This document shows positions 1,707 to 60,949 of a stretch of 64,000 bases of DNA, in pieces. Numbering within the stretch: the first letter of the stretch is position 1; each line of letters begins with the position of its first letter. The stretch comes from a virus. The notes below the pieces were generated by a model that saw nothing but the letters and a program-made list of their open reading frames with translations, was not told where the DNA came from and searched no databases. The stretch lies in IMG/VR virus record IMGVR_UViG_3300035687_000001. One strand, 5' to 3'. Position numbers and translations under genes: made by a program.

Positions 1707-1762
1707 CCTCCGGTGCGGGATGCGTCTCGGCACATACTACCCGAACGGGTAGGGTCAGGCAA
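1707..1762 (-). promoter_or_regulatory. promoter/operator/leader cassette P1
   Basis: Box cctccggtgcgg 1707-1718; core CTACCC-N4-GGGTAG 1737-1752; minus-strand TTGCCT(1757-1762)-17 nt-TAGTAT(1734-1739); precedes CDS 1330..1698. Confidence 0.6.
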
Positions 1763-2222
1763 GCCCCAGTCCCAGGGTGAGGAATTTGAGGCTGAAGGAC
1801 TTGGATGCCGTGCGCACGATCTCGCCGTGGTCGAAGGCCAGCTCGTCCACGTTCACCTCGTGCAGCGGCAGCCATGCGGCCATCAGGGCATCGTCGGCGC
1901 CCCGCACCGGCGGGCGGGGGCCGGTCAGCAGGATGGCGAAGGGGAAGCTGACGTACCTGCCCCGGTGGTCGCGGTCCGGGTGCGCGCGGACCGGCTGCGG
2001 GATCCAGTTGTTGCTCTCGAACGGGATCGCCAGGCCGGTCTCCTCGGCCAGCTCGCGCTCGCAGGTGCCCTCCACCGGCTCGTAGACCTCGACATCGACA
2101 CAGCCGCCCGGCAGCGCCCACTTGCCGTCGTCCTGGCGCTGGATCAGCAACAGCGAGACGCCGCCGCTCTCGGCGTCCTCGTGGAAGACCACCGCGTCGG
2201 CGGCCAGCACTACCTCGATCAT
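1755..2222 (-). CDS. Nudix hydrolase
   Basis: Nudix box GGCVDVEVYEPVEGTCERELAEETGL; ATG 2222 after GGAGGA; track ORF 1755..2402 trimmed. Confidence 0.85.
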   Translation of the reverse strand: MIEVVLAADAVVFHEDAESGGVSLLLIQRQDDGKWALPGGCVDVEVYEPVEGTCERELAEETGLAIPFESNNWIPQPVRAHPDRDHRGRYVSFPFAILLTGPRPPVRGADDALMAAWLPLHEVNVDELAFDHGEIVRTASKSFSLKFLTLGLGLA

Positions 2223-2251
2223 GAGTCCTCCTCGTTTGGTTTCCATGAGTC

Positions 2252-2536
2252 TCAGCGACGGCGGCGGTTCAGTCCGTCCTCGACCTCGTCGGTGATCTGG
2301 TCCTGGAAAGCTCGGACCTGGTTCTCCAGCGGCGCCGTCTCCGCGCGCTCGGCCGCGTTGGCCGCCCGTACCTGGACCTCGTAGCAGCCCTTGACGCGAC
2401 ACGACGTCACGACCTTGCGGCCCATGTCTGACGGAAACTCCATCCCGCTGAAGTCGTGTTCGTGCTCGCCGGGCTCCACCGACACGACCTTGCGCGGCGG
2501 GAAGATCCAGGCCTTGAGCTTCTCGATCGGATTCAT
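2252..2536 (-). CDS. hypothetical protein (94 aa)
   Basis: ATG 2536 (MNPIEKLKAW) 2 nt after stop of 2539..2862; track ORF 2252..2575 trimmed. Confidence 0.65.
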   Translation of the reverse strand: MNPIEKLKAWIFPPRKVVSVEPGEHEHDFSGMEFPSDMGRKVVTSCRVKGCYEVQVRAANAAERAETAPLENQVRAFQDQITDEVEDGLNRRRR

Positions 2537-2538
2537 GA

Positions 2539-2862
2539 TCACTCCTCGTTGGATTCCATCAGCTGCTCGTGACATCGGCAGCAGGTCTTGGGACGCCCGT
2601 CGTTGTCCAGGGCGTCCGCGCCGTTGAAGATCGGCTGCGGGACCTCGGTGGTCTCGCGCAGGTACGTCAGGCCGTTCTCGGCGGCCCAGATCTCGATCTC
2701 GCTCTCCAGCACCGCACCGGCGCGCACGGGACCGGTCGTGCTGGTGCCCATCGCCTCCAGGGTGCAGCGCGGGCAGTACTCCTCAGTTCGCCAGGCGTAG
2801 CCCACGACGTCGGTCGAGCTGCCGCCGTAGGACTGGGTGAATCCGGTTCCATTCCAGCGCAT
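2539..2862 (-). CDS. hypothetical protein with CPRC..CCRC zinc-ribbon-like motifs (107 aa)
   Basis: ATG 2862 (MRWNGTG) 2 nt after stop of 2865..3113; N-terminal extension in track ORF 2539..3003 is R/G-rich. Confidence 0.65.
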   Translation of the reverse strand: MRWNGTGFTQSYGGSSTDVVGYAWRTEEYCPRCTLEAMGTSTTGPVRAGAVLESEIEIWAAENGLTYLRETTEVPQPIFNGADALDNDGRPKTCCRCHEQLMESNEE

Positions 2863-2864
2863 GA

Positions 2865-3113
2865 TCAGCCTTCCTGGGGGAGTTCGGGCGTGGCGGCGAA
2901 GTCGCCGCCCTCGTGCTGGCGCTGAGCCTCGGCCAGCATGTCCGCGAAGGTGATCCGCAGCCGCCACTGGCCCGCGTACTCCGGGCGGGGGTCGGGCTCC
3001 CACTCGCCGATGCGGATGCTCCGGCCTTGCGGGTTCTCGACCTCGACGAAGCGCGGAGCCTCGTGGCTCGGTGGGCCGTCGAAGATGATGTGGATGGCGC
3101 TGGGTTCGTTCAC
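2865..3113 (-). CDS. hypothetical protein (82 aa)
   Basis: GTG 3113 after GAAAGGA; VNEPSAIHIIFDGPP..; the 99 nt upstream (alt ATG 3212) have clearly lower GC3 and hairpin potential, so treated as non-coding. Confidence 0.55.
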   Translation of the reverse strand: MNEPSAIHIIFDGPPSHEAPRFVEVENPQGRSIRIGEWEPDPRPEYAGQWRLRITFADMLAEAQRQHEGGDFAATPELPQEG

Positions 3114-3211
3114 GAGCGAGATCCTTTCAGGGAGAGCCGGGGCGGCTGACCTGCGCAGTGCCTTGAGGCGCCCACATGGACAGGTAATGGCAGCGCCGCC
3201 CCGGCAGGTCA

Positions 3212-3582: not shown

Positions 3583-3643
3583 CCTCCAGTGCGGCTCGGG
3601 TGGTGATGTGGCCCACCCTACCCGATCGGGTAGGGTCACGCAA
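3583..3643 (-). promoter_or_regulatory. promoter/operator/leader cassette P2
   Basis: Box cctccagtgcgg 3583-3594; core 3618-3633; TTGCGT(3638-3643)-17-TAGGGT(3615-3620) on minus strand; precedes CDS 3212..3577. Confidence 0.6.
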
Positions 3644-4477: not shown

Positions 4478-4529
4478 CCTCCAGTGCGGTGGTCCCGCAA
4501 CACTACCCGTTCGGGTAGAGATGTGGCAA
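4478..4529 (-). promoter_or_regulatory. promoter/operator/leader cassette P3
   Basis: Box 4478-4489; core 4503-4518; TTGCCA(4524-4529)-18-TAGTGT(4500-4505); precedes CDS 3739..4470. Confidence 0.6.
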
Positions 4530-4594: not shown

Positions 4595-5122
4595 ATGGTG
4601 AACCCGGAACGGGCGCTGGCCCTGACCGAGGCCGTCAAGCTGCACGCCGGATCGTTCGGCGACAAACAGTTCGAGGAAGACCGAGATGCGGTGCTCGCCA
4701 CGGCGGTGCGCTTCTACGCCTTCCTCACCGGCCCCGCGACGGCAACAGTGGCCTTCGGCCCCATCGTGAAGCAGAACACTCTGGAACCCACCGGAAAGGC
4801 TGGTACTGCCATGGCCCAGATCCACGACGACGAGGAATTCGACGTCTCGCTCACCGCTGCCGACGCCAAAGGCGCCGAGGTCCTCGACAAGGCGGGCGAC
4901 ACCTCCGACGACCCGGCGTTCGTCAGCTCGGACGAGAGCGTCTTCACCTACCGGATCGACTCGAACGACCCGCGCCAGGCCACGGTCGTCGCCGGGATGC
5001 CGGGCTCGGCGGTCGGCACGATCACCCTGGGCAGCATCACGGTGACCCACGCGGTGGACGTGGTCGCGGGCGACGTCGCCGTGGTGAACGTCAGCGAGGG
5101 TGCGGCCCGCAAGCAGGCCTGA
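4595..5122 (+). CDS. hypothetical protein with Ig-like (Big_2-type) C-terminal region
   Basis: Only well-formed plus-strand ORF in a gap between minus CDS; C-terminus VVAGMPGSAVGTITLGSITVTHAVDVVAGDVAVVNV resembles bacterial Ig-like repeats; followed by hairpin 5166-5219. Confidence 0.7.
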   Translation: MVNPERALALTEAVKLHAGSFGDKQFEEDRDAVLATAVRFYAFLTGPATATVAFGPIVKQNTLEPTGKAGTAMAQIHDDEEFDVSLTAADAKGAEVLDKAGDTSDDPAFVSSDESVFTYRIDSNDPRQATVVAGMPGSAVGTITLGSITVTHAVDVVAGDVAVVNVSEGAARKQA

Positions 5123-7458: not shown

Positions 7459-7514
7459 CCTCCAGTGCGGTCGGGTGAGCCTCCAGGTTACCCTACCCAG
7501 AAGGGTAGGGTCAA
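7459..7514 (-). promoter_or_regulatory. promoter/operator/leader cassette P4 (class with -35-like hexamer abutting core)
   Basis: Box 7459-7470; core 7493-7508; TTGACC 7509-7514 directly abuts core; -10 candidate TAACCT 7485-7490 at 18 nt. Confidence 0.5.
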
Positions 7515-7621: not shown

Positions 7622-7987
7622 CTACGGGGTAAAGGGAACGGTCGGGTGGAGCTGGAGCGTACCGTCCGCGCTCAGCTCCGAGATCAGGAAGTAGTTGTTG
7701 TGGCTCGGGTCCTTGGACCAGGCGTCCGGCCAGCGCGTCGACTGCCAGATCGCGATCTCGCCGACGAGGGTGAACTGGCTGACCCACTCCGCCGGGTTGT
7801 TCGTCAGCGGCGTCAGGGGGCTGAAGGCCAGCAGCTTCTCCAGGTAAGTCCGCATGAGCGGCCAGTTCGTCTCGGGGTTCGGGACGTCGGCGAAGTTGCC
7901 GACGATGGTGATCAGCGGCGTCTTGATCACATCCGGCGCGTTGATCGCGGTCAACTCGGCGATGGCGTGATCACCCAGTGCAGTCAT
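7622..7987 (-). CDS. hypothetical protein (121 aa)
   Basis: ATG 7987 (MTALGDHAI) after AAGGAG; track ORF 7622..8014 trimmed. Confidence 0.7.
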   Translation of the reverse strand: MTALGDHAIAELTAINAPDVIKTPLITIVGNFADVPNPETNWPLMRTYLEKLLAFSPLTPLTNNPAEWVSQFTLVGEIAIWQSTRWPDAWSKDPSHNNYFLISELSADGTLQLHPTVPFTP

Positions 7988-10880: not shown

Positions 10881-10937
10881 CCTCCAGTGCGGTCTCGGTG
10901 ATGACCCCACACTACCCGATCGAGTAGTGTGGGGCAA
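10881..10937 (-). promoter_or_regulatory. promoter/operator/leader cassette P5
   Basis: Box 10881-10892; core 10912-10927 within 30-bp imperfect palindrome 10905-10934; TTGCCC(10932-10937)-17-TAGTGT(10909-10914). Confidence 0.6.
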
Positions 10938-12099: not shown

Positions 12100-12155
12100 C
12101 CTTCCGATGCAGGATGTTGCGAGTCGACACTACTCGATCGAGTAGTGTCGGTCAA
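12100..12155 (-). promoter_or_regulatory. promoter/operator/leader cassette P6 (variant box)
   Basis: Variant box ccttccgatgcag 12100-12112; perfect 24-bp palindrome gacactactcga/tcgagtagtgtc 12126-12149; TTGACC(12150-12155)-17-TAGTGT(12127-12132). Confidence 0.6.
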
Positions 12156-14295: not shown

Positions 14296-14356
14296 CCTCC
14301 GGTGCGGTCCTTGAACTGACAAGACCCACACTACCCGAGTGGGTAGTGTGGGTCAA
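14296..14356 (-). promoter_or_regulatory. promoter/operator/leader cassette P7 (extended-palindrome subfamily)
   Basis: Box 14296-14307; leader hairpin 14306-14326 (CTGAC loop); 32-bp palindrome gacccacactaccc-N4-gggtagtgtgggtc 14323-14354; TTGACC(14351-14356)-17-TAGTGT(14328-14333). Confidence 0.65.
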
Positions 14357-15851: not shown

Positions 15852-15900
15852 CCTCCAGTGCGGATCCACCCAGACTACCCGAACGGGTAGGGTTGGTCAA
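15852..15900 (-). promoter_or_regulatory. promoter/operator/leader cassette P8
   Basis: Box 15852-15863; core 15875-15890; TTGACC(15895-15900)-17-TAGTCT(15872-15877). Confidence 0.6.
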
Positions 15901-18265: not shown

Positions 18266-18481
18266 TCACGACTCCATCGCTTCGCGCAGGACATACAGGC
18301 CCTCCGAGGTGATGTTGCACTTCCAGACCCGGTCCTCGTCCGCCAGCTCGGCGGTGATCAAGCCGCGCCGGACGAGGGCGTCGAGCGTCCGGACGTAGGT
18401 CGACTTCGCCAGGAACGTGACGTCCGGCCCGCGCCAGTCGACCTCGGAGAGCACCTGGTGCTGGGTCTCGCTGAGCTTCAT
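18266..18481 (-). CDS. winged-helix (MarR-like) DNA-binding protein (71 aa)
   Basis: Track ORF; TYVRTLDALVRRGLITAE....ITSEG pattern typical of wHTH. Confidence 0.65.
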   Translation of the reverse strand: MKLSETQHQVLSEVDWRGPDVTFLAKSTYVRTLDALVRRGLITAELADEDRVWKCNITSEGLYVLREAMES

Positions 18482-19014: not shown

Positions 19015-19074
19015 CCTCCAGTGCGGCTTGGGTGCGTTCCCCACGATACTACCCGTTCGGGTAGTGGTTGTCTA
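19015..19074 (-). promoter_or_regulatory. promoter/operator/leader cassette P9
   Basis: Box 19015-19026; core 19049-19064; TAGACA(19069-19074)-17-TAGTAT(19046-19051). Confidence 0.6.
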
Positions 19075-19362
19075 CCCGCGCCGGGCGCGCCACTTCGCCA
19101 GCAGGTCGGCGCCCTTCGAGGTGACCCGCAGACGGCGGCGGGCCTGGTGCCCGACCATGATGTGCTCGCTGTGCACGATGGCCTCGGCCGCGAGCAGCAG
19201 CAGCACGGGGTGCCGGTCCTGCGGCTTGTGGACGAACACCTCGCGCTGGAGGTAACTGACGCCCAGGCCGCCCGGGTTGAAGGAATGCAGGTCGCCGTCC
19301 TCGGCTGCCACCAGCGTCTCCTGACGCTCGGGCGTCCACGCGATCTCGCGCGTCTCGCTCAT
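19072..19362 (-). CDS. winged-helix DNA-binding protein, candidate regulator (96 aa)
   Basis: Track ORF; sole CDS between cassettes P10 and P9; C-terminal RLRVTSKGADLLAKW resembles a wHTH wing. Confidence 0.65.
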   Translation of the reverse strand: MSETREIAWTPERQETLVAAEDGDLHSFNPGGLGVSYLQREVFVHKPQDRHPVLLLLAAEAIVHSEHIMVGHQARRRLRVTSKGADLLAKWRARRG

Positions 19363-19367
19363 CCTGA

Positions 19368-19435
19368 CCTCCAGTGTGGTCCTGCACGTGCAGATGGATG
19401 GGCATCACGCTACCCGTTCGGGTAGATCGGCTCAA
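19368..19435 (-). promoter_or_regulatory. promoter/operator/leader cassette P10
   Basis: Variant box cctccagtgtgg 19368-19379; core 19410-19425; TTGAGC(19430-19435)-17-TAGCGT(19407-19412). Confidence 0.6.
19382..19393. promoter_or_regulatory. 12-bp perfect palindrome CTGCACGTGCAG in leader of CDS 19072..19362
   Basis: Lies between -10 of P10 and its SD box; not present in other cassettes. Confidence 0.4.
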
Positions 19436-21834: not shown

Positions 21835-22643
21835 CACGCCAGCTTGAAGTGCTCGTCGGTCAGCTCGGGCAGCCCCTTGAGCACGAGGACCTTGATCTTC
21901 TTCCCCTCGCGCTTGGCGTTCCAGGCCTTGGTTCCGGCGGCCAGGAACGGCTTCACCGGCTTCTCGCCGCCCTTCTGCGCGTGGCGGATGATCAACGCCC
22001 GCAGGGCCAGCTCCGGATCGCCCTGGTGCAGCCCCTCGCCGCGCATGACGCCTTCCCAGAACTCCAGGGCCGTGGCCGCGTCGATCCGGAAGGTGAGGAA
22101 GTACAGGCAGCCGAACGCCGCCGGGAGCCCGCCGATCTCGTTGCGCAGCCCCATGCCGTAACGCACTGCCTGGCCGATCGCGTCGCGGTTCGCCACGACG
22201 TAGTCGACGATCTCGGTGTCGGTGGGCTTGTAGACCTCGCCCCGGACTTCTTCGACCTCCCAGAGCAGCGCGAGCCGGGCCACGGCCGAGGCCGATTTCG
22301 CCGACGGGACGTCGTGGCCCATCTTCAGCTCGTCGGACGCGGTCCGGCGCCGGTTCCGGTCCATCTTGAAGCGGTCTTCGCGCGGGATGCCCTCGATGAT
22401 GAAGAACTCGACCGTCACGCCCGCCTCGACCAGCGCTTCCAGCCGGTGCTGGCCGTCGATCAGGTGACCGTCCTCGTCGAACTTGATCGTCTCGCCGATG
22501 TTGGGGAACTGGTTGTTCCGCATGTCCCGGGCCATCTTGCCGACCCACGAAGGCGACGGTGAGCGGTTGTCGCTATTCGTGAGCAGCCACTTCTTCGCCA
22601 GCTGCGGTGTGACCGGCATCTTCTTGGCCCTCAGGTTGCTCAA
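21834..22643 (-). CDS. ParB N-terminal-domain (ParB-like nuclease) protein
   Basis: Track ORF; DEDGHLIDGQHRLEAL motif; TTG 22643 6 nt after GGAGG (alt ATG 22619); first gene after cassette P11. Confidence 0.8.
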   Translation of the reverse strand: MSNLRAKKMPVTPQLAKKWLLTNSDNRSPSPSWVGKMARDMRNNQFPNIGETIKFDEDGHLIDGQHRLEALVEAGVTVEFFIIEGIPREDRFKMDRNRRRTASDELKMGHDVPSAKSASAVARLALLWEVEEVRGEVYKPTDTEIVDYVVANRDAIGQAVRYGMGLRNEIGGLPAAFGCLYFLTFRIDAATALEFWEGVMRGEGLHQGDPELALRALIIRHAQKGGEKPVKPFLAAGTKAWNAKREGKKIKVLVLKGLPELTDEHFKLA

Positions 22644-22658
22644 AATCAGCCTCCATTC

Positions 22659-22711
22659 CCTCCGGTGCGGGTTGCTCCAATCAGACTACCCGATTAGGTA
22701 GGTTCTGACCA
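22659..22711 (-). promoter_or_regulatory. promoter/operator/leader cassette P11 (weak -35)
   Basis: Box 22659-22670; core ctacccgattaggtag 22686-22701; TAGTCT 22683-22688; -35 position reads TGGTCA. Confidence 0.5.
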
Positions 22712-25921: not shown

Positions 25922-25981
25922 CCTCCGATGCGGGGCAGGTAGATATGGGTAGACCCTACCCGAGTGGGTAGGGTCGGTCAA
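25922..25981 (-). promoter_or_regulatory. promoter/operator/leader cassette P12
   Basis: Variant box cctccgatgcgg 25922-25933; extra GGTAG/GGGTAG half-sites 25939-25952; core 25956-25971; TTGACC(25976-25981)-17-TAGGGT(25953-25958). Confidence 0.6.
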
Positions 25982-28361: not shown

Positions 28362-28475
28362 TTGTGGGCCTCCAATGCGGCGGTAATGCGGGCGAAAGTC
28401 ATCTTCTTTGTAAGACTTTGTGGTGCGCAATGTAGCAAGAAGTCCCTGCGAATGCAGGACCTATCGCAAGATCGG

Positions 28476-29935: not shown

Positions 29936-29995
29936 CCTCCGGTGCGGTCTTGAACTGATACGCCCACCCTACCCGATCGGGTAGGGTGGGCGCAA
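29936..29995 (-). promoter_or_regulatory. promoter/operator/leader cassette P13
   Basis: Box 29936-29947; perfect 28-bp palindrome cccaccctacccga/tcgggtagggtggg 29963-29990; TTGCGC(29990-29995)-18-TAGGGT(29966-29971). Confidence 0.6.
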
Positions 29996-30691: not shown

Positions 30692-30751
30692 CCTCCGGTG
30701 CGGCTCGGTTGGTGATACCTGAACCCTACCCGTTCGGGTAGTGTGCGTCAA
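30692..30751 (-). promoter_or_regulatory. promoter/operator/leader cassette P14
   Basis: Box 30692-30703; core 30726-30741; TTGACG(30746-30751)-17-TAGGGT(30723-30728); overlaps last codons of 30726..31199. Confidence 0.6.
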
Positions 30752-31755: not shown

Positions 31756-31815
31756 CCTCCGGTGCGGCGTTCAGCGGGTATGACCGACCCTACCCGAATG
31801 GGTAGGGTCGGTCAA
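31756..31815 (-). promoter_or_regulatory. promoter/operator/leader cassette P15
   Basis: Box 31756-31767; 26-bp palindrome 31785-31810; TTGACC(31810-31815)-17-TAGGGT(31787-31792). Confidence 0.65.
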
Positions 31816-32464: not shown

Positions 32465-32502
32465 GATCTTGACCTCCAGTGTGGTCGAGAAGCGGAGAAG
32501 GT

Positions 32503-32812: not shown

Positions 32813-32871
32813 CCTCCGGTGCGGTCTTGCGGTGTACTCATGACACTACCTATTCAGGTAGTGTGAGTCAA
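32813..32871 (-). promoter_or_regulatory. promoter/operator/leader cassette P16
   Basis: Box 32813-32824; core ctacctattcaggtag 32846-32861; TTGACT(32866-32871)-17-TAGTGT(32843-32848). Confidence 0.6.
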
Positions 32872-34808: not shown

Positions 34809-34871
34809 CCTCCGGTGCGGCTCGTTCTTGCTGACAAGAATGAGATTACACTACCCACTTGGGTAGTGCAA
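34809..34871 (-). promoter_or_regulatory. promoter/operator/leader cassette P17 (-35-like hexamer abutting core)
   Basis: Box 34809-34820; leader hairpin ttcttg-ctga-caagaa 34825-34840; core 34851-34866; TTGCAC(34866-34871)-17-TAATCT(34843-34848); TGACCTGCG 34880-34888 just upstream. Confidence 0.55.
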
Positions 34872-35303: not shown

Positions 35304-35366
35304 CCTCCGGTGCGGGCCTTCGTGCTGACAAGGACGACCCTACCCTACCCGTTCGGGTAGTGTCAA
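35304..35366 (-). promoter_or_regulatory. promoter/operator/leader cassette P18 (-35-like hexamer abutting core)
   Basis: Box 35304-35315; leader hairpin 35317-35333; core 35345-35360; TTGACA(35361-35366)-18-TAGGGT(35337-35342, second of two tandem TAGGGT). Confidence 0.55.
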
Positions 35367-37119: not shown

Positions 37120-37188
37120 CCTCCGGTGCGGCTCGTTCCGTGCTGACATGAGGAACTCTACACTACCTATCCGGGTAGTGTCCATACC
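37120..37188 (-). promoter_or_regulatory. promoter/operator/leader cassette P19 (weak -35)
   Basis: Box 37120-37131; leader hairpin gttcc..ggaac 37135-37156; core ctacctatccgggtag 37163-37178; TAGTGT 37160-37165; TGACCTGCG 37192-37200 upstream. Confidence 0.5.
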
Positions 37189-38209: not shown

Positions 38210-38272
38210 CCTCCGGTGCGGTCGTGGTGTGCTGACCTGACCCACACTACCCGTTCAGGTAGTGTGGGTCAA
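38210..38272 (-). promoter_or_regulatory. promoter/operator/leader cassette P20 (extended-palindrome subfamily)
   Basis: Box 38210-38221; 32-bp palindrome 38239-38270; TTGACC(38267-38272)-17-TAGTGT(38244-38249). Confidence 0.65.
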
Positions 38273-39452: not shown

Positions 39453-39514
39453 CCTCCGGTGCGGTCTCTCTAACTGACAAGACCCACACTACCCGTCTGG
39501 GTAGTGTGGGTCAA
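39453..39514 (-). promoter_or_regulatory. promoter/operator/leader cassette P21 (extended-palindrome subfamily)
   Basis: Box 39453-39464; leader hairpin 39463-39484; 32-bp palindrome 39481-39512; TTGACC(39509-39514)-17-TAGTGT(39486-39491); near-identical to P22. Confidence 0.65.
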
Positions 39515-39926: not shown

Positions 39927-39986
39927 CCTCCGGTGTGGCCTTTAACTGACAAGACCCACACTACCCGTCTGGGTAGTGTGGGTCAA
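39927..39986 (-). promoter_or_regulatory. promoter/operator/leader cassette P22 (extended-palindrome subfamily)
   Basis: Variant box cctccggtgtgg 39927-39938; 32-bp palindrome 39953-39984; TTGACC(39981-39986)-17-TAGTGT(39958-39963). Confidence 0.65.
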
Positions 39987-40777: not shown

Positions 40778-40829
40778 CCTCCAGGTAGGTCGGTGAGACC
40801 TTGACCCTACCCGATCGGGTAGGGTCAAG
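40778..40829 (-). promoter_or_regulatory. promoter/operator/leader cassette P23 (perfect 30-bp palindrome)
   Basis: Variant box cctccaggtagg 40778-40789; cttgaccctacccga/tcgggtagggtcaag 40800-40829 with TTGACC on both arms; no well-spaced -10. Confidence 0.45.
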
Positions 40830-40852
40830 ACTGGACAGAAGCTGGACAGTTA

Positions 40853-41064: not shown

Positions 41065-41069
41065 AGCTT

Positions 41070-42022: not shown

Positions 42023-42088
42023 CCTCCGGTGCGGACTGTGTTCTTTGCTGACAAGACCCACACTACCCATTTAGGTAGTGTGGGTCAA
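42023..42088 (-). promoter_or_regulatory. promoter/operator/leader cassette P24 (extended-palindrome subfamily)
   Basis: Box 42023-42034; leader hairpin 42042-42056; 32-bp palindrome 42055-42086; TTGACC(42083-42088)-17-TAGTGT(42060-42065). Confidence 0.65.
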
Positions 42089-42351: not shown

Positions 42352-42372
42352 GTCGGATCCCTTCGTGGAAGT

Positions 42373-42399
42373 GGCGGGACGCCGGTGTGGCGTCCCGCC
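42373..42399 (-). terminator. hairpin terminator after CDS 42406..42774
   Basis: 11-bp stem ggcgggacgcc/ggcgtcccgcc, 5-nt loop. Confidence 0.7.
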
Positions 42400-42405
42400 C
42401 GGGGG

Positions 42406-42779: not shown

Positions 42780-42845
42780 CCTCCGGTGCGGCGCTCGCTT
42801 CGTGCTGACGTGAGGAAGCCTACCTACCCATTCGGGTAGTGTCAA
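42780..42845 (-). promoter_or_regulatory. promoter/operator/leader cassette P25 (-35-like hexamer abutting core)
   Basis: Box 42780-42791; leader hairpin gcttc..gaagc 42797-42819; core 42824-42839; TTGACA(42840-42845)-17-TAGGCT(42817-42822). Confidence 0.55.
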
Positions 42846-43492: not shown

Positions 43493-43554
43493 CCTCCGGT
43501 GCGGCTCGGTGCTTGACGGGGTTGACGGTACCCTACCCGAATGGGTAGTGTCAA
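43493..43554 (-). promoter_or_regulatory. promoter/operator/leader cassette P26 (-35-like hexamer abutting core)
   Basis: Box 43493-43504; tandem TTGACGG x2 in leader (43512-43528); core 43533-43548; TTGACA(43549-43554)-18-TACCGT(43525-43530). Confidence 0.55.
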
Positions 43555-45341: not shown

Positions 45342-45387
45342 GATCCCTCCAGGGGTGGTTCAGGATTGCGTTCTCGCAGGGTATGTT

Positions 45388-45406
45388 ACCCCGTAGCCTA
45401 CGGGGT
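45388..45406. promoter_or_regulatory. 19-bp palindrome ACCCCGTAG-C-CTACGGGGT in divergent control region
   Basis: 9+1+9 perfect inverted repeat between divergent CDS 44898..45341 (-) and 45422..45691 (+); TATCCT at 45410-45415 ends 6 nt before ATG 45422. Confidence 0.45.
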
Positions 45407-45421
45407 GAGTATCCTACGGTC

Positions 45422-45691
45422 ATGACTTACGACTCCGAGCGTGACGAGACCCCGAGCTACGAGGGCGAGGTGACCGAGGTCCGTGAGGGCATGCGCCTGC
45501 GGACCAAGGTCGTCATCGGCGCGCTCGGCGCCGGGGTCGGACTGGCAGCGACCGGGAACTGGATGCTGCTGATCATGCTGATCTGCGCCTACGTGACCTG
45601 GATGTTCGTGCGGACGTGGCTGGAGAAGCGCCGTCGGGACCGGACCTGGCGAGACGGCGGCGGAACGATCGAGCGAGGAGGGATCCTGTGA
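45422..45691 (+). CDS. small membrane protein (89 aa)
   Basis: ATG 45422 (MTYDSERDE..), two adjacent TM helices VVIGALGAGVGLAATGNWMLLIMLICAYVTWMF; no SD, possibly leaderless; GTGA-coupled to next CDS. Confidence 0.6.
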   Translation: MTYDSERDETPSYEGEVTEVREGMRLRTKVVIGALGAGVGLAATGNWMLLIMLICAYVTWMFVRTWLEKRRRDRTWRDGGGTIERGGIL

Positions 45692-48548: not shown

Positions 48549-48552
48549 GGCC

Positions 48553-48566
48553 GTTTGCGCAGGTCA
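48553..48566 (-). repeat. TGACCTGCGCAAAC repeat, inverted copy
   Basis: Plus strand gtttgcgcaggtca; exact reverse complement of 48674-48687. Confidence 0.7.
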
Positions 48567-48590
48567 ACGGCCCATGAGCGGCTTAGAGTG

Positions 48591-48630
48591 CAGAAGGCCC
48601 CGGGTGTGCTCGACCACCCGGGGCCTTCTG
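48591..48630. terminator. strong hairpin terminator after translocase gene
   Basis: Perfect 16-bp stem cagaaggccccgggtg/cacccggggccttctg, 8-nt loop. Confidence 0.75.
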
Positions 48631-48673
48631 CTGTCCGCCCTGCGAAGAAGGACATCTTAGCCTAACACGCGCC

Positions 48674-48687
48674 TGACCTGCGCAAAC
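48674..48687 (+). repeat. TGACCTGCGCAAAC repeat, direct copy
   Basis: Exact 14-mer. Confidence 0.7.
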
Positions 48688-48753
48688 GTGCCTCGCGCGC
48701 CTGCGAACACGTACGTACGTACTGCATGCGCACACGCTACGTGCGCGCTGCGC

Positions 48754-48777
48754 GTCTCACGTCGCATGTCTCACGTC
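48754..48777 (+). repeat. tandem GTCTCACGTC repeat (14-nt period)
   Basis: gtctcacgtcgcat gtctcacgtc. Confidence 0.65.
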
Positions 48778-48842
48778 ATGCGTAACACGCGCAGGCGCGG
48801 ACGCTGCGAGAACACGAGATTGATCAAATATGCCCAGGTCAC

Positions 48843-48856
48843 TGACCTGCGGAAAC
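48843..48856 (+). repeat. TGACCTGCGGAAAC repeat, direct copy (1 mismatch)
   Basis: 13/14 match to 48674-48687. Confidence 0.65.
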
Positions 48857-48911
48857 TCTCAGAGGCCATCCTGGGGGTCTCGGCCCGTCTCGCTCCGGGT
48901 CGCGATCATGA

Positions 48912-48944
48912 AAGAGCCCCCGGCACCGTCTCCCGGGGGCTCTT
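48912..48944. terminator. hairpin terminator after minus-strand CDS 48960..49235
   Basis: 12-bp stem aagagcccccgg/ccgggggctctt, 9-nt loop; TTT follows on minus strand. Confidence 0.7.
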
Positions 48945-48959
48945 CTCGACGCAGCGTGA

Positions 48960-53216: not shown

Positions 53217-53273
53217 CCTCCAGTGCGGATGCGTTGTCAGTGGGATACTACCCGATTGGGTAGGTGATCACAA
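53217..53273 (-). promoter_or_regulatory. promoter/operator/leader cassette P27
   Basis: Box 53217-53228; core 53248-53263; TTGTGA(53268-53273)-17-TAGTAT(53245-53250). Confidence 0.6.
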
Positions 53274-53566: not shown

Positions 53567-53593
53567 GATGTCTTCCTCCAGGGCGGAGACGGG

Positions 53594-53652: not shown

Positions 53653-53904
53653 TCAGACGCGGGAGCGGGTGAGCTTGCGACGCTCGTCGGGGGTCGTGCC
53701 GCCGAAGATGCCGTGGTCGAGACCGTTCTCCAGGGCGAAGCCCAGGCAGACCTCCCTGACCGGGCAGGTGCCGCAGACCGCCTTCGCCTGCGCCGTCTGC
53801 CGCTCGCCGGGCCCGAACTCGGAGACCGGGAAGAACAGCTCCGGGTCCTCGTCCTTGCACGCGGCGAAGTCGCTCCACGCGAACTGTCCGATGCGCTCGT
53901 TCAT
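53653..53904 (-). CDS. whiB: WhiB-family Fe-S transcription factor
   Basis: Track ORF; four Cys (C..CGTCPVREVC) plus GIFGG turn and basic tail; GAGGAGG before ATG. Confidence 0.9.
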   Translation of the reverse strand: MNERIGQFAWSDFAACKDEDPELFFPVSEFGPGERQTAQAKAVCGTCPVREVCLGFALENGLDHGIFGGTTPDERRKLTRSRV

Positions 53905-54146: not shown

Positions 54147-54206
54147 CCTCCGGTGCGGCTTGGTGGTGTACTGATCACAGTACCCGAATGGGTAGGGTAG
54201 GCGCAA
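54147..54206 (-). promoter_or_regulatory. promoter/operator/leader cassette P28
   Basis: Box 54147-54158; core gtacccgaatgggtag 54180-54195; TTGCGC(54201-54206)-18-TACTGT(54177-54182). Confidence 0.55.
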
Positions 54207-54616: not shown

Positions 54617-54855
54617 GAGGCCAGCTCACGCAGCTCGGTCAGCACGTCCTCGGGGATGACCTCGGTCAGACCGAGCATGTCGGCCAGCTCCAGGTAGTCC
54701 TCCGGGCTGGCCGACATGGGCAGGAGGTTCTTAGCCGCCCGCACCCGCTCCTCGCGCCGGTAGGCCTGCTCGGCCTCGCGCATCTCGGCGTCGGTCTTGC
54801 CGAGCCGCGTGGTCAGCGGGTTCCAGGTGCCGTTGTTGGCGATCGTGCTGCGCAT
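54613..54855 (-). CDS. hypothetical protein (80 aa)
   Basis: Track ORF. Confidence 0.7.
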   Translation of the reverse strand: MRSTIANNGTWNPLTTRLGKTDAEMREAEQAYRREERVRAAKNLLPMSASPEDYLELADMLGLTEVIPEDVLTELRELAS

Positions 54856-55073
54856 CAGGCTGCCGCCTCCTCGATGTCGGTGTGGACCACGCCGGTGGGC
54901 TCGAAGCCGCCCCGCTCGTCGAAGGGCTCACCGTGCCAGCCGCGCTGCCAGGCGCGGTAGGACACCGTGGTCGGGTGGTAGGGGTTGCCCAGGTCGGGCT
55001 GGGCCTCCAGGTGGGCCGTGTCGCCCTGACGCCAGGCCAGGTGGGTCTGATCGGTACGCGGGATGGCACTCAT
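54855..55073 (-). CDS. hypothetical protein (72 aa)
   Basis: Track ORF; ATG after CCACACCGAAGGGAGCGGAG (orphan box variant 55082-55093). Confidence 0.7.
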   Translation of the reverse strand: MSAIPRTDQTHLAWRQGDTAHLEAQPDLGNPYHPTTVSYRAWQRGWHGEPFDERGGFEPTGVVHTDIEEAAA

Positions 55074-55100
55074 CTCCGCTCCCTTCGGTGTGGGATTGGA

Positions 55101-55149
55101 GCAACCCCCTGCTTGGCGGCCCTAGGGCATCCGCCGGGCAGGGGGTTGC
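55101..55149 (-). terminator. long hairpin terminator after Lsr2-like gene
   Basis: 12-bp stem gcaaccccctgc/gcagggggttgc with inner ggcgg/ccgcc stem. Confidence 0.55.
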
Positions 55150-55160
55150 TGGCTCTTCAT

Positions 55161-55526
55161 CTATTGACGGTGCTTGAGAGGGCCCACGGACCGCTCGAAG
55201 GCGTCCAGCACGGGTGTCGGGACCTTCCCCCGGGTGCTGACCCTCATGCCCTGCTGGTTGGCCCAGGCGCGAACATCGGCCAGCTCGGCGCGCTTGGCCT
55301 GCGCCGGGGTCATGTCCCGGCGGGCCTCCACGTCGATCAGCGGCCGCGCCGCCGTGACGTACTCGATCAGCGCCGCACGCAGGTCCTTGGCGTTGCGGTC
55401 GGAGAGGTCGATGACGTAGCTCGTGCCGTCGATGCCGAAGACGATCTCCTCGTCCGCCGCGATGTCGAGGTTGCCGCGCTGGCGCTCCAGGTCGTCGACC
55501 CGGCGACGGATCACTTGTTCCGCCAT
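55161..55526 (-). CDS. lsr2: Lsr2-like nucleoid-associated protein
   Basis: ATG 55526 after GGGAGG; N-terminal VDDLERQ..EIVFGIDGTSYVIDLSDRNAKDLRAAL and C-terminal VRAWANQQGMRVSTRGKVPTPVLDAF match the Lsr2 dimerisation and AT-hook-like domains; track ORF 55161..55601 trimmed. Confidence 0.85.
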   Translation of the reverse strand: MAEQVIRRRVDDLERQRGNLDIAADEEIVFGIDGTSYVIDLSDRNAKDLRAALIEYVTAARPLIDVEARRDMTPAQAKRAELADVRAWANQQGMRVSTRGKVPTPVLDAFERSVGPLKHRQ

Positions 55527-55636
55527 TACGGCCTCCCTTTCCGTCGGATTCTGCTGGACATTGCGCAGAGTTCTGAGGGTATTCAAGCGTATATCACTCA
55601 CCTCTTTCGATCAATAAGCGCAGGGACTTCGATACG

Positions 55637-55673
55637 AGAAGAGCCGGGAGAGGGGGTCTCTCCCGGCTCTTCT
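55637..55673 (-). terminator. strong hairpin terminator after CDS 55677..56219
   Basis: Perfect 16-bp stem agaagagccgggagag/ctctcccggctcttct, 5-nt loop. Confidence 0.75.
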
Positions 55674-55676
55674 GGG

Positions 55677-56224: not shown

Positions 56225-56287
56225 CCTCCGGTGCGGCGCTTCGTGCTGTCGAGATGAACACTACCCGTTCGGGTAGGGTGACGTCAA
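56225..56287 (-). promoter_or_regulatory. promoter/operator/leader cassette P29
   Basis: Box 56225-56236; core 56261-56276; TTGACG(56282-56287)-18-TAGTGT(56258-56263). Confidence 0.6.
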
Positions 56288-57430: not shown

Positions 57431-57506
57431 TTCCCTCGCTCCTCCAGTGCGGATCGGTTGGCCTTATGGTCTCACACCGTTGGCCGCACGCCAGCATCTG
57501 TGATGA

Positions 57507-59666: not shown

Positions 59667-59698
59667 GGATCCTCCTCGGGTTCGCTCGTTGGGCGCGA

Positions 59699-60307
59699 TC
59701 AGTGGCGGCTGAACAGCCAGATCAGCAGCACGGTGGCGCCCAGGGTGACCACGTTGGCGATCAGGCGGCGGCGGCGCTCGCGCTTCTCCTCGTCGGAGAC
59801 GAACACGTCGAAGCGGATGTCGGTCAGCTTGTCGTAGCGCGGCGCCGGGGCGTGGTTCAGCGCGTGCCGGTAGGCCACTACGAGGAAGGGCAGCGCGACC
59901 CAGATCCAGGGAATGACGTCCGGCGCCAGGCCGAGCAGCACCAGCGAGAGGAAGGCGAACATGCCGACCGCGTAGTGCACGCGGCGAATGGCGTCGTGGC
60001 GGCTCTCAGCGCGCACAGCGGCCCCGGCAAGGCGCTCGTTCTCCCGGCGGACCAGGTCGATGTCCGGCATGCCGTAGAGCCGCTCGTCACGGGTGTCGCG
60101 GTACCAGTAGACGCCGTCGCTGACGTCGATCTGCACCAGGTACTTGCGCGCGTCGGACTCTCGCTGCGGGTAGCTCAGGGCCCAGACGTCCCAGGCCGGG
60201 CCGATCTGGTCCTCGTAGGTGACGTCGAACTCGACGTCCTCGGCCGGGGGCTGCTCGCGGTAGTCGCGGCGGACCTCTTCCCAGCTCAGGGGCTCGAAAT
60301 CGGTCAT
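59699..60307 (-). CDS. membrane protein (202 aa, three C-terminal TM helices)
   Basis: Track ORF; first gene after cassette P30. Confidence 0.75.
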   Translation of the reverse strand: MTDFEPLSWEEVRRDYREQPPAEDVEFDVTYEDQIGPAWDVWALSYPQRESDARKYLVQIDVSDGVYWYRDTRDERLYGMPDIDLVRRENERLAGAAVRAESRHDAIRRVHYAVGMFAFLSLVLLGLAPDVIPWIWVALPFLVVAYRHALNHAPAPRYDKLTDIRFDVFVSDEEKRERRRRLIANVVTLGATVLLIWLFSRH

Positions 60308-60312
60308 GGCAG

Positions 60313-60369
60313 CCTCCAGGTGGTGGGCGGGTCACCACTCATACTACCCGAATGGGTAGGGTAGGTCAA
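60313..60369 (-). promoter_or_regulatory. promoter/operator/leader cassette P30
   Basis: Variant box cctccaggtggt 60313-60324; core 60344-60359; TTGACC(60364-60369)-17-TAGTAT(60341-60346). Confidence 0.6.
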
Positions 60370-60680
60370 CGAGGCATCTGGACACCGGCGCGCTGGTGCG
60401 TCCGCTCGAAGGCCGAGCGGCTCATCCCGAGCTTGACGATGATCTCCATCCGCTTCAGGCCCTGCTCGGCCAGGAAGGTGGTCTCCTCGATGACCTCGGC
60501 CGCGCGGCGGTAGACCGTCGGATAGTCGTCGAGCACGCCGTGCCCCCTGGCCCAGGCGAAGCAGCGGCGGCAGAGGTGCCGGGACTTGTGCACGACGAAG
60601 CCCGGGGGCGGCTGAGTTTCCACCGTCCCCGGGACCATCGGCCAGTCGCACCTCTTGCAAGGCGGCAGGCTGGATTTCAC
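60366..60680 (-). CDS. DNA-binding protein (N-terminal CxxC..CxxC zinc ribbon + C-terminal HTH)
   Basis: Track ORF; CKRCDW..CRRCFAW then EIIVKLGMSRSAFERTHQRAG. Confidence 0.65.
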   Translation of the reverse strand: MKSSLPPCKRCDWPMVPGTVETQPPPGFVVHKSRHLCRRCFAWARGHGVLDDYPTVYRRAAEVIEETTFLAEQGLKRMEIIVKLGMSRSAFERTHQRAGVQMPR

Positions 60681-60880
60681 TCGCTCGGCACCTCGTTCTG
60701 GACCGCGTAGCGCTCGTCGAGCGCTTCCGCCACGAGGTCGAGCAACATGGCCCGCTCCGCCGCCCGGCGCGAGCGACGCTGGAGCGTCCTTGCGGCGGTG
60801 GGGGCGGACGAGATGCAGACGATCTTGTGGTGGGTGTGATGACGAGCAGCGCGGTCCCGGTGAACGGCAGTGGCTTCCAT
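60677..60880 (-). CDS. hypothetical protein (67 aa)
   Basis: ATG 60880 7 nt after GGAGG of cassette P31; track ORF 60677..61174 trimmed. Confidence 0.6.
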   Translation of the reverse strand: MEATAVHRDRAARHHTHHKIVCISSAPTAARTLQRRSRRAAERAMLLDLVAEALDERYAVQNEVPSE

Positions 60881-60887
60881 GACTTTG

Positions 60888-60949
60888 CCTCCAGTGCGGC
60901 GGTGTTCCTTGACCTCTCCAACACTACCCAACCGGGTAGTGCGTGTCAA
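60888..60949 (-). promoter_or_regulatory. promoter/operator/leader cassette P31
   Basis: Box 60888-60899; core 60924-60939; TTGACA(60944-60949)-17-TAGTGT(60921-60926); -35 overlaps terminase stop. Confidence 0.6.

Follow-up and report, generated by a model that had tools for sequence, protein, structure and literature searches.

What is the role of a promoter-like cassette that a virus carries 31 times in a single orientation, each time just ahead of a gene? The question is raised by a 64,000-nucleotide stretch of the IMG/VR record IMGVR_UViG_3300035687_000001 (the window, meaning the whole stretch analysed). Each cassette joins a pair of promoter-like hexamers, the palindrome CTACCC-N4-GGGTAG and a leader box that contains a Shine-Dalgarno (SD) sequence. 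We find that the cassette system is real, strongly non-random and specific to one phage lineage, and that it is of the type of the start-associated sequences (SAS) and their extended form (ESAS) of cluster K mycobacteriophages, not a new category. Judged by their sequence, the cassettes are probably promoters for the housekeeping sigma factor of the host, and the palindrome is a separable module and most likely an operator.

Probable promoter, palindrome and leader box

The palindrome pattern CTACCCNNNNGGGTAG (CTACCC-N4-GGGTAG) has 29 matches in the window at ≤1 mismatch, against 0.07 expected, and exactly 31 sites at ≤2 mismatches, from 1737-1752 to 60924-60939. All point the same way, each placed either in an intergenic gap or across the final codons of the gene upstream, and the next minus-strand start codon follows after 31-49 nt. 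By called starts this holds for 30 of the 31; the gene behind palindrome 60924 was missed by the gene caller, and its true start is ATG 60880. An earlier note on this DNA had listed 31 copies, from 1707-1762 to 60888-60949, each with a coding sequence directly after it, and its count, coordinates, orientation and placement are correct for all 31. It went too far in having the cassettes organise the whole minus-strand gene array, as 31 of the 61 gaps of ≥25 bp hold a cassette and about half do not; none is found at 43.6-53.2 kb or 61-64 kb.

The best hexamer pairing in every cassette is TTG(A/C)C(N) as the -35 element with TA(G)NNT as the -10 element, with a spacer of 17 nt (22 copies) or 18 nt (nine copies). 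T1, T2 and G3 of the -35 hexamer are conserved in 30, 27 and 31 copies, respectively, and T1, A2 and T6 of the -10 hexamer in 31 each. As T6 is kept irrespective of its pairing potential with the left flank of the palindrome, the inverted repeat does not account for it. The strict pattern TTGAC-N18/19-TA[GC]NNT has 17 minus-strand matches, all within cassettes, against 0.18 expected on both strands together; the single plus-strand match also lies inside a cassette, and there are no others in the 64 kb. The genome-wide consensus of Streptomyces coelicolor is TANNNT for the -10 and NTGACC for the -35 element, with typical leaders of 30-39 nt (PMC4895711). All 31 cassettes agree with these hexamers, in line with the earlier proposal of a Streptomyces housekeeping-sigma consensus, and their predicted leaders of 21-37 nt are similar in length to the typical ones. 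A scan with the Escherichia coli promoter consensus, which is unsuited to TAGNNT promoters, found only the cassette at palindrome 37163. The sequence (G/A)TCA(G/C)C recurs 8 nt past the -10 element, as GTCAGC in 13 window copies, in a register that is constant whatever the position of the palindrome, and is likely the +1 region. Host RNA polymerase with a HrdB/SigA-type sigma factor would thus read TTGAC(C)-17/18 nt-TAGNGT and probably start about 8 nt after the -10 hexamer.

The leader box, CCGCACYGGAGG, is an asymmetric, SD-containing motif that is conserved beyond its complementarity to 16S rRNA. At ≤1 mismatch, 35 copies are present in the window where 2.6 are expected; the minus strand has 32 of the 35, and 27 of the 35 fall within palindrome cassettes. 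It stands 5-9 nt before the start codon, as described earlier, and begins 11-32 nt past the palindrome end instead of the 20-45 nt given then. Three boxes deviate strongly (those of palindromes 12130, CTGCATCGGAAG; 40807, CCTACCTGGAGG; and 60344, ACCACCTGGAGG), and four boxes, at 28369, 32473, 53575 and 57441, have neither promoter nor palindrome.

An alignment of 55 distinct boxes with their flanks indicates that the box can fold back on its own SD. A closing pair joins the base that precedes CCGCAC to the one that follows GGAGG; it is GC in 22 boxes, AU in 16, UA in four, CG in three and GU in two, with eight unpaired; about 17 Watson-Crick pairs are expected from the column frequencies. Covariation of this pair is 0.228, compared with 0.067±0.012 in shuffled alignments (0 of 500 reach it) and ≤0.049 in slid controls. 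RNAalifold independently pairs N-CC with GG-N', giving three pairs around an 8-nt loop, GCACYGGA. The sole strongly altered SD, GGAAG in the cassette of palindrome 12130, is matched by CT replacing CC. The covarying closing pair and this compensatory CT/AG change indicate that CCGCAC is at least partly an anti-SD. In other respects the predicted leaders are no more structured than shuffled sequence, with mostly positive z scores. The combination of a weak stem and a conserved loop suggests a recognition hairpin or a uniform setting for translation initiation: the mini-hairpin would set or regulate ribosome loading uniformly for each first gene, with GCACYGGA displayed in the loop.

Where else does the cassette occur? 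Among the genomes of 185,579 species, one for each, none contains the composite pattern, and TTGAC-N5-palindrome has 27 single matches there, in scattered taxa, at chance level and without a multi-copy locus. Among GenBank phages, megablast of 20 kb of the window gave no match at the DNA level, and a distant blastn search with one cassette returned only chance palindrome matches in haloarchaeal viruses. When the palindrome plus NGT (15 specified bases) was searched against IMG/VR, chance singletons dominated among the matches listed. The motif was found only in related metagenomic phage contigs. These are IMG/VR UViG_3300049259_000204, which is syntenic at about 80-95% identity, 3300049982_000268, 3300036773_000146 (149.7 kb), and JGI and Logan contigs of 97-158 kb. 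Since the relatives are known solely as metagenomic contigs, the cassettes belong to a phage lineage of about 150 kb without a cultured member. There they persist down to 64-69% identity of a neighbouring 96-aa protein (gene 19072-19362), and the phylogenetic footprint of the cassette at palindrome 19410 covers the whole stretch from the -35 hexamer to the start codon. They are also kept beside diverged or replaced genes: 29933-29998 is 94% identical to its counterpart in relative L008, with a downstream protein only 29% identical.

Such repetition could also be that of a selfish or recombinogenic repeat, resembling repetitive extragenic palindromic (REP) sequences, miniature inverted-repeat transposable elements or integron-like attachment sites, whose expression signals are incidental. 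High-copy extragenic palindromes of this kind, REP and GTAG-tagged palindromic repeats, are spread across bacterial chromosomes (PMC3733652). Near-identical cassette copies of 60-70 bp do occur, five of them with identical 14-bp arms, and the gene content between cassettes differs among relatives. For example, a homologue of 39529-39921 (59% amino-acid identity; L006 4373-4714 against window 39604-39939) takes the place of 18731-19009 in relative L006, lying between the counterparts of 18485-18727 and 19072-19362, and the replacement is bounded by cassettes. Homology breakpoints fall at cassettes 22 times against 6.7 expected, but about as often at cassette-free gaps (19 against 7.1 expected), and we therefore rejected cassettes as special recombination boundaries. 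The strict single orientation and the fixed distance of 31-49 nt to a start codon largely refute a selfish repeat. The window has no transposase or integrase, the copies are flanked by no target-site duplications or terminal repeats, and the 185,579 species genomes lack the motif save for the 27 chance-level matches, so that neither a mobile element nor a REP-like element of host chromosomes is indicated. We regard this explanation as highly improbable.

The palindrome as putative operator

The position of the palindrome relative to the promoter defines two classes. In class 1 (24 copies), the TAG of the right arm forms the first half of the -10 hexamer. In class 2 (six copies, at palindromes 7493, 34851, 35345, 37163, 42824 and 43533), the left arm is directly preceded by the -35 hexamer, and 17-18 nt past that hexamer comes a TAnnnT of its own; site 40807 has the abutting -35 yet lacks a second -10. 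The earlier note was right about the abutting hexamer and about one member (40807) lacking a second TAnnnT, but its minority class has seven members instead of six, 37163 being added. The class 2 arrangement is retained in the corresponding cassettes of relatives. Across both classes the -35, the -10 and GTCAGC stay in mutual register while the dyad is displaced by 4-5 bp, which indicates that the dyad is an independent module placed over core promoter DNA. As judged from the hexamer positions, it would span about -26 to -11 in class 1 and about -31 to -16 in class 2.

The symmetry of the palindrome is that of a protein-binding site. Two-fold 6-4-6 symmetry is perfect in 23 of the 31 copies, with half-sites 10 bp apart; TAC/GTA in the arms is invariant in 60 of 60 cassettes from the window and its relatives; and, by eye, symmetry reaches the centre in 16 of 31, as G..C or A..T at positions 7 and 10. 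Invariant arms, 10-bp half-site spacing and central symmetry together fit a duplex-DNA site for a blocking dimer, as a hairpin with a 2-nt loop could not use the centre. The registers in the 31 copies thus bear out the earlier description of a palindrome that crosses the spacer and overlaps the -10. The proposal built on it, a dimeric repressor that would control about 31 units, is still tentative but gains from the separable symmetric site over the promoter. In such a mechanism, one dimeric, probably phage-encoded DNA-binding protein would bind the 16-bp dyad, exclude polymerase and shut the units off together.

In about one third of the copies, complementarity extends to 13-16 bp, with arm sequences that differ between copies (GACCCACA/TGTGGGTC, GACCGACC/GGTCGGTC, CGCCCACC/GGTGGGCG, GCCCCACA/TGTGGGGT, CCGACA/TGTCG and TCTTGACC/GGTCAAGG). 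Over 60 distinct cassettes from the window and relatives, covariation in the 14-pair helix is 0.203, against 0.147±0.012 in shuffles (0 of 500 reach the observed value) and ≤0.108 in slid controls; related copies inflate these figures, and there are still at least six independent arm variants. Stems of ≥13 bp, in ten or eleven copies, reach -21 to -35 kcal/mol and are followed by a weakly U-rich tail, UUGUCAGUU. Fold strength goes with the surroundings. Cassettes with an upstream gap of 16-48 nt and no other hairpin (n = 10) fold at -21 to -35 kcal/mol, those with a separate strong upstream hairpin of -20 to -36 kcal/mol (n = 5) fold at only -10 to -20, and those abutting the upstream stop codon have mostly weak hairpins, a comparison that is partly confounded as the extended arms themselves take up space. 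Many promoters may therefore need a terminator or insulator ahead of them, supplied either by a separate hairpin or by a lengthened operator dyad. Where the gap has no separate terminator, the same DNA would form a strong hairpin that ends the upstream transcript.

Variable, ordinary GC-rich hairpins are also present in many cassette-free gaps, with unrelated sequences (33841-33894, 36171-36220, 41009-41069, 42352-42405, 32465-32537, 55074-55160 and 55527-55676). They often stand directly after the first gene of a cassette-led operon, suggesting attenuation after a highly expressed first gene.

Several observations weigh against a simple repressor-operator cassette. Two copies have compensatory double changes in the core (12130, CTACTC/GAGTAG; 32846, CTACCT/AGGTAG), and single-arm core changes give 14 G·U against three A·C pairs on the sense strand, neither of which is expected of a pure double-stranded DNA operator. 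The hairpin itself could thus be functional, although the G·U excess is no more than suggestive, since the -10 element places its own constraint on the right arm. No window protein could be assigned to the palindrome, the candidates being weak or sub-threshold in Pfam, PHROGs, PDB and Foldseek comparisons. The SD mini-hairpin is weak, at -3.5 kcal/mol in the consensus and with a mean SD-unpaired probability of about 0.5. The spacer element of a sister lineage, described below, looks more like an asymmetric recognition site for an activator or specificity factor than like a dimeric operator. Finally, a near-consensus promoter can do without an activator, yet a site in the spacer allows readings other than repression.

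The first of these points would be explained if the palindrome were mainly a nucleic-acid hairpin in read-through transcripts, that is, an intrinsic terminator, a site of RNase III-type processing or an element stabilising 3' ends between operons, in the manner of the early RNase III sites of T7, with the hexamers secondary. The arm covariation, the two compensatory core changes and the sense-strand G·U excess agree with such a role, as does the occurrence of the ten or eleven strongest folds exactly where another terminator is absent; a terminator scan with the E. coli consensus flagged a single cassette, 34851. Yet two thirds of the copies have a stem of a mere 6-8 bp at -10 to -17 kcal/mol, the U-tract past the stem is poor, and a hairpin role does not need the sequence invariance seen in the arms. 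Ordinary terminator hairpins that covary exist in other gaps, even just upstream of some cassettes; the one upstream of the cassette at 19410 has compensatory substitutions between relatives. The -35 TTG and the -10 T6, moreover, are conserved at a fixed spacing independent of pairing. We therefore consider a hairpin as the main function quite unlikely.

The sister lineage is represented by UViG_3300044816_000098, a 154-kb contig whose terminase is 53% identical and whose compared parts share almost no genes with the window. It lacks CTACCC/GGGTAG. In its place is a spacer element, GTTGTACTCCTGCAAT-N-(G/T)AGTAGAGTC, read as TTGTAC-17-TAGAGT, and the promoter is followed by a GTCAGCA-like +1 region and then by CTCC(C/T)(C/T)GGAGG, 4-6 nt before ATG, so that CUCC-N2-3-GGAG stands where the window has its mini-hairpin. 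Retention of this layout with a different spacer element indicates that the architecture is conserved while the spacer is re-coded, with the box again an anti-SD beside the SD. In the window, a palindrome at 28444-28459 (-), TCCTGCATTCGCAGGG, resembles the sister spacer element TACTCCTGC-N4-GCAGGAGTA.

Of the ten sister copies compared, nine keep the left half of the element, GTTGTACTCCTGCAAT, nearly invariant, and only three have a complementary right half. This is the main evidence that the spacer element could be a positive specificity site, for a phage activator, a factor resembling T4 MotA/AsiA, or a phage sigma factor or RNA polymerase, which would make these middle-type promoters. Conservation of the spacer is unusual for plain sigma-70-type promoters, no repressor was identified among the window proteins, and the phage encodes a WhiB-like protein (53653-53904), of a family that contacts sigma region 4. 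Set against this are hexamers near consensus at the optimal spacing of 17-18 nt, with which the host holoenzyme should need no help; two palindrome registers, which are hard to square with a factor touching polymerase in fixed geometry; the perfect two-fold symmetry of 23 of 31 copies in the window lineage; and the lack of a sigma factor, RNA polymerase or MotA-like domain among the proteins of the 64-kb window, itself part of a larger genome. On balance this explanation appears unlikely. MerR-type activation was dropped because the spacers have the optimal 17-18 nt and not 19-20 nt, and a RecA-NDp/PafBC-like reading of TTGTCAG was dropped by eye, as one checked cassette had no TAnnnT at the required spacing. 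With sigma-70-type hexamers complete and no gene for a polymerase found in the window, an N4-type hairpin promoter for a phage RNA polymerase is unlikely.

If the palindrome is an operator, what reads it? The three proteins that the earlier note had taken for helix-turn-helix (HTH) or winged-helix regulators (19072..19362, 18266..18481 and 60366..60680) have weak or sub-threshold matches at best, which do not confirm that identity. The product of 18266-18481 matches MarR_2 below threshold (E 0.004) and, weakly, SlyA/MarR proteins among PDB sequences. That of 60366-60680 has CxxC motifs, a weak HTH_23 match (E 0.024) and a PHROG annotated as HNH endonuclease. The 96-aa product of 19072-19362 has no Pfam match; its structure model (pLDDT 89.7) is most like PadR-like proteins in the PDB, not significantly (Foldseek probability 0.9, E 0.15, TM 0.49), and a profile comparison with Rv3488 gives E 0.34. 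The leader of this gene holds, between promoter and SD box (19380-19406, -), a 12-bp perfect palindrome, CTGCACGTGCAG, that is conserved in relatives L006, L142, L143 and L144 with G or A at one central position and could be a second, gene-specific operator. To our knowledge, the WhiB and Lsr2 families, both present in the window, do not read short dyads.

Taken as a whole, the claim that the window holds 31 host-type promoters, each with a repressor-bound operator and a standardised leader, is in our judgement evenly balanced between true and false. Each cassette would then suffice by itself to express one small operon, probably an early one, of an actinobacterial phage of about 150 kb.

Phage genes and feature coordinates

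The window has 67-69% G+C along its full length and about 150 genes by codon-bias gene calls, nearly all on the minus strand; the exceptions among called genes are 4595-5122 and a three-gene block at 45422-48548. The product of 60946-63255 is similar to the large terminases of Rhodococcus phage E3 and cluster C mycobacteriophages (31-34% identity). All called proteins, as concatenated sequences, were compared with Pfam and PHROGs, which revealed no sigma factor, RNA polymerase, integrase, transposase or clear HTH. A tRNA scan of the window found nothing, and an Rfam 15 scan gave 0 matches at gathering score.

Genes downstream of cassettes look early or anti-defence in character (ArdC-, Tad3- and gp5.9-like, WhiB, Lsr2). 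Cassette-led operons contain a Tad3-like Thoeris inhibitor (7622-7987, -; E 1e-7), a T7 gp5.9-like RecBCD inhibitor (19871-20158, -; E 6e-12) and an ArdC-like anti-restriction protein with a zincin domain (41070-42017, -; E 2e-38). Other Pfam matches in the window are NUDIX, M50 peptidase, Metallophos and a ParB/GmrSD_N-like domain. The WhiB-like protein (53653-53904, -; E 3e-21) and an Lsr2-like protein that has a dimerisation as well as a DNA-binding domain (55161-55526, -), both of which we take to indicate an actinobacterial host, are related to actinobacterial regulators and could reprogram host transcription. Near them, 54855-55073 (-) encodes a 72-aa product that matches ribosome modulation factor at E 7e-4, which falls short of the Pfam cut-off.

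The whole block at 43.9-53.2 kb is without cassettes. Its plus-strand genes (45422-48548) encode two membrane proteins, one small and one DUF2637-like with an HTH-like tail at its C terminus, and an FtsK/TraB-like translocase of 685 aa, and the block resembles the transfer and spread genes of Streptomyces conjugative plasmids. It is followed by a 411-bp non-coding stretch (48549-48959) that contains GACGTGAGAC repeats and a (GTAC)n run, has hairpins at either end and might be a region of clt or origin type. Between the minus-strand gene 44898-45341 and the plus-strand module lies an 80-bp divergent region (45342-45421) with two direct copies of CCGTAGG and an inverted CTACGGGG (ccgtaggatactcaccccgtaggctacgggg). 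These half-sites are of GTAG type, in everted order relative to the cassette dyad, and possibly form a separate operator for the plus-strand module. Elsewhere, the 142-bp gap directly upstream of cassette 11 (22702-22843) is unusually AT-rich for a genome of 67% G+C. Coordinates of the cassettes, of the boxes outside them and of the candidate regulator genes are collected in Table 1.

Table 1. Cassettes, boxes outside cassettes and candidate regulator genes in the window. Hexamers are given as -35, spacer length in nt and -10.
Feature	Span	Strand	Hexamers	Palindrome	Box; start codon	Remarks
Cassette 1, class 1	1707..1762	(-)	TTGCCT-17-TAGTAT	1737-1752	CCGCACCGGAGG 1707-1718; GTG 1698	
Cassette 2, class 1	3583..3643	(-)	TTGCGT-17-TAGGGT	3618-3633	3583-3594; ATG 3577	separate upstream hairpin in gap
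Cassette 3, class 1	4478..4529	(-)	TTGCCA-18-TAGTGT	4503-4518	4478-4489; ATG 4470	
Cassette 4, class 2	7459..7514	(-)	TTGACC-18-TAACCT	7493-7508	7459-7470; ATG 7451	
Cassette 5, class 1	10881..10937	(-)	TTGCCC-17-TAGTGT	10912-10927 (CTACTC/GGGTAG)	10881-10892; ATG 10875	extended arms GCCCCACA/TGTGGGGT
Cassette 6, class 1	12101..12155	(-)		12130-12145 (CTACTC/GAGTAG, compensatory)	variant CTGCATCGGAAG 12101-12112, also compensatory; GTG 12092	
Cassette 7, class 1	14296..14356	(-)	TTGACC-17-TAGTGT	14331-14346	14296-14307; ATG 14290	14-bp arms GACCCACA.../...TGTGGGTC
Cassette 8, class 1	15852..15900	(-)	TTGACC-17-TAGTCT	15875-15890	15852-15863; ATG 15843	
Cassette 9, class 1	19015..19074	(-)	TAGACA-17-TAGTAT	19049-19064	19015-19026; ATG 19009	overlaps 3' end of gene 19072-19362
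Cassette 10, class 1	19368..19435	(-)	TTGAGC-17-TAGCGT	19410-19425	CCACACTGGAGG 19368-19379; ATG 19362	long leader with second palindrome CTGCACGTGCAG; independent terminator hairpin upstream
Cassette 11, class 1	22643..22711	(-)	weak -35 TGGTCA; -10 TAGTCT	22686-22701 (CTACCT/GGGTAG)	CCGCACCGGAGG 22659-22670, then second GGAGG; TTG 22643 (start uncertain)	
Cassette 12, class 1	25922..25981	(-)	TTGACC-17-TAGGGT	25956-25971	CCGCATCGGAGG 25922-25933; ATG 25913	
Cassette 13, class 1	29936..29995	(-)	TTGCGC-18-TAGGGT	29969-29984	29936-29947; ATG 29926	16-bp arms CGCCCACC/GGTGGGCG
Cassette 14, class 1	30692..30751	(-)	TTGACG-17-TAGGGT	30726-30741	30692-30703; ATG 30686	palindrome over end of upstream gene
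Cassette 15, class 1	31756..31815	(-)	TTGACC-17-TAGGGT	31790-31805	31756-31767; ATG 31750	15-bp arms GACCGACC/GGTCGGTC
Cassette 16, class 1	32813..32871	(-)	TTGACT-17-TAGTGT	32846-32861 (CTACCT/AGGTAG, compensatory)	32813-32824; ATG 32807	separate hairpin upstream
Cassette 17, class 2	34809..34871	(-)	TTGCAC-17-TAATCT	34851-34866	34809-34820; ATG 34803	+1-like GTCAGC
Cassette 18, class 2	35304..35366	(-)	TTGACA-18-TAGGGT	35345-35360	35304-35315; ATG 35295	GTCAGC
Cassette 19, class 2	37120..37184	(-)	TGGACA-18-TAGAGT	37163-37178 (CTACCC/AGGTAG)	37120-37131; ATG 37114	GTCAGC; strong separate hairpin upstream
Cassette 20, class 1	38210..38272	(-)	TTGACC-17-TAGTGT	38247-38262 (CTACCT/GGGTAG)	38210-38221; ATG 38204	extended arms
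Cassette 21, class 1	39453..39514	(-)	TTGACC-17-TAGTGT	39489-39504	39453-39464; ATG 39447	14-bp arms
Cassette 22, class 1	39927..39986	(-)	TTGACC-17-TAGTGT	39961-39976	CCACACCGGAGG 39927-39938; GTG 39921	14-bp arms
Cassette 23, ambiguous class	40778..40833	(-)	TTGACC abutting palindrome; no second TAnnnT	40807-40822	variant CCTACCTGGAGG 40778-40789; ATG 40772	15-bp arms TCTTGACC/GGTCAAGG
Cassette 24, class 1	42023..42088	(-)	TTGACC-17-TAGTGT	42063-42078 (CTACCT/GGGTAG)	42023-42034; ATG 42017	14-bp arms; ArdC-like gene
Cassette 25, class 2	42780..42845	(-)	TTGACA-17-TAGGCT	42824-42839	42780-42791; ATG 42774	GTCAGC
Cassette 26, class 2	43493..43554	(-)	TTGACA-18-TACCGT	43533-43548	43493-43504; ATG 43486	
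Cassette 27, class 1	53217..53273	(-)	TTGTGA-17-TAGTAT	53248-53263	53217-53228; ATG 53208	box closing pairs CAT/ATG
Cassette 28, class 1	54147..54206	(-)	TTGCGC-18-TACTGT	54180-54195 (CTACCC/GGGTAC)	54147-54158; ATG 54141	
Cassette 29, class 1	56225..56287	(-)	TTGACG-18-TAGTGT	56261-56276	56225-56236; ATG 56219	
Cassette 30, class 1	60313..60369	(-)	TTGACC-17-TAGTAT	60344-60359	degenerate ACCACCTGGAGG 60313-60324; ATG 60307	
Cassette 31, class 1	60888..60949	(-)	TTGACA-17-TAGTGT	60924-60939	60888-60899; ATG 60880	palindrome 6 nt past stop of terminase-like gene; 66-aa product
Orphan SD box	28369..28380	(-)		no CTACCC/GGGTAG	CCGCATTGGAGG	different palindrome TCCTGCATTCGCAGGG upstream at 28444-28459
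Orphan SD box	32473..32484	(-)			CCACACTGGAGG	ordinary GC-rich hairpin before box
Orphan SD box	53575..53586	(-)			CCGCCCTGGAGG	ordinary hairpin before box
Orphan SD box	57441..57452	(-)	no promoter	no palindrome	CCGCACTGGAGG	
Candidate regulator gene, 96 aa	19072..19362	(-)				between cassettes 9 and 10; 64-93% identity in 21 metagenomic relatives; confident model, weak PadR-like similarity
Candidate regulator gene, 71 aa	18266..18481	(-)				sub-threshold MarR-type winged-helix match
Candidate regulator gene, 104 aa	60366..60680	(-)				CxxC motif; weak HTH_23 match

Relation to known phage systems

How do the cassettes compare with multi-copy control elements of other phages? The parallel that the earlier note drew with the stoperators of cluster A mycobacteriophages is a loose one. 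Phages such as L5 have roughly 24-30 copies of a short site across intergenic regions with one direction of transcription, an arrangement that lets one phage protein control the array. Stoperators, in contrast, are 13-bp asymmetric sites for a monomeric repressor that act as elongation roadblocks and are mostly not promoters (PMC3203893), whereas the dyad described here lies within the promoter. The stoperator consensus GGTGGMTGTCAAG is not enriched in the window, with four matches against 2.9 expected. The 17-bp palindrome TGTTCGG-N3-CCGAACA of cluster O phages is also a near-invariant dyad with more than 30 copies per genome, mostly at gene boundaries, but it has no fixed relation to promoters, start codons or transcription direction (PMC4351075); it has 0 matches in the window at ≤2 mismatches.

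Other phages offer functional analogies. Aca-repressed anti-CRISPR promoters are very strong early promoters of anti-defence genes with inverted repeats, to which a small HTH protein binds, shutting the promoter off once the first burst is over (PMC9410906). One operon is controlled in those systems, compared with about 31 units here. The 41-kb temperate phage phiC31 has conserved inverted repeats (CIRs) of about 17 bp at many intergenic sites of its early region, which are operators of the c repressor; its early promoters are not known to resemble those of sigma-70, nor are CIRs known to form part of every promoter spacer. In T4, about 40 early promoters are strongly conserved, with no known operator dyad, and its RegA protein is a single translational repressor acting at the ribosome-binding sites of many early mRNAs, at sites that are not known to be hairpins.

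The closest known system is the ESAS/SAS of cluster K mycobacteriophages, not the stoperators. SAS is a 13-bp box that includes the ribosome-binding site and precedes the start of 13-19 genes by 3-9 bp; an ESAS lies upstream of about half of the SAS sites (PMC3203893). In 2024 the ESAS received a new description, as a motif of 46-47 bp that combines an imperfect inverted repeat with SigA-like hexamers spaced 17-18 bp apart and may be the target of a regulator (PMC11373665), and a 2025 survey still calls the function of ESAS and SAS unverified (PMC12699233). Both systems place a conserved asymmetric box with a ribosome-binding site before many non-structural genes in one orientation, under an upstream motif of about 46-50 bp with SigA-like hexamers 17-18 bp apart and an inverted repeat, a likeness at the level of layout. 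In both, the box also occurs without the promoter part (four orphan boxes in the window), the inverted-repeat consensus varies between sublineages, and the motif is absent from host genomes.

The differences are as clear. The box is unrelated in sequence to SAS: GGGATAGGAGCCC at ≤2 mismatches has three matches in the window against 2.3 expected, none at a start codon, so that the box works like SAS but is not of the same family. Box and promoter are coupled in 27-31 of about 35 cases here and in about half in cluster K. The dyad is a short, perfect 6-4-6 one, compared with imperfect repeats of 15-17 bp that are 4-14 bp apart in ESAS, and there are 31 copies in 64 kb instead of seven ESAS per 60 kb. 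Arms and box both covary, whereas Pope et al. in 2011 found no support for pairing of the ESAS arms (PMC3203893). Finally, the host of the cassettes is a lineage of about 150 kb with a cluster C/E3-like terminase, that of ESAS/SAS a 60-kb temperate siphovirus.

Beyond the earlier note, the arm extension with compensation, the covarying SD hairpin and the sister lineage with a different spacer are new. They allow a speculative and rather doubtful extension, in which the cassette would be a four-in-one part made of an upstream terminator, a host-type promoter, a DNA operator and an RNA operator (the SD mini-hairpin with loop GCACYGGA). Were this true, 31 or more early units would be switched off (or on) both transcriptionally and translationally by two factors devoted to this task, both elements would have been re-coded in sister lineages with the architecture intact, and the ESAS/SAS of cluster K would be explained as a two-level switch. 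If the operator reading holds, one small regulator and possibly one RNA-binding factor would govern about 31 promoters and leaders, a clean modular form of early-gene control. In practical terms, the window is a natural collection of about 31 versions of one part, a strong and probably repressible promoter with a ribosome-binding site, for high-GC actinobacteria such as Streptomyces and Mycobacterium. The cassettes offer a second example, independent in sequence, of the ESAS/SAS architecture, which has awaited a functional explanation since 2011, and they provide testable hypotheses for both systems.

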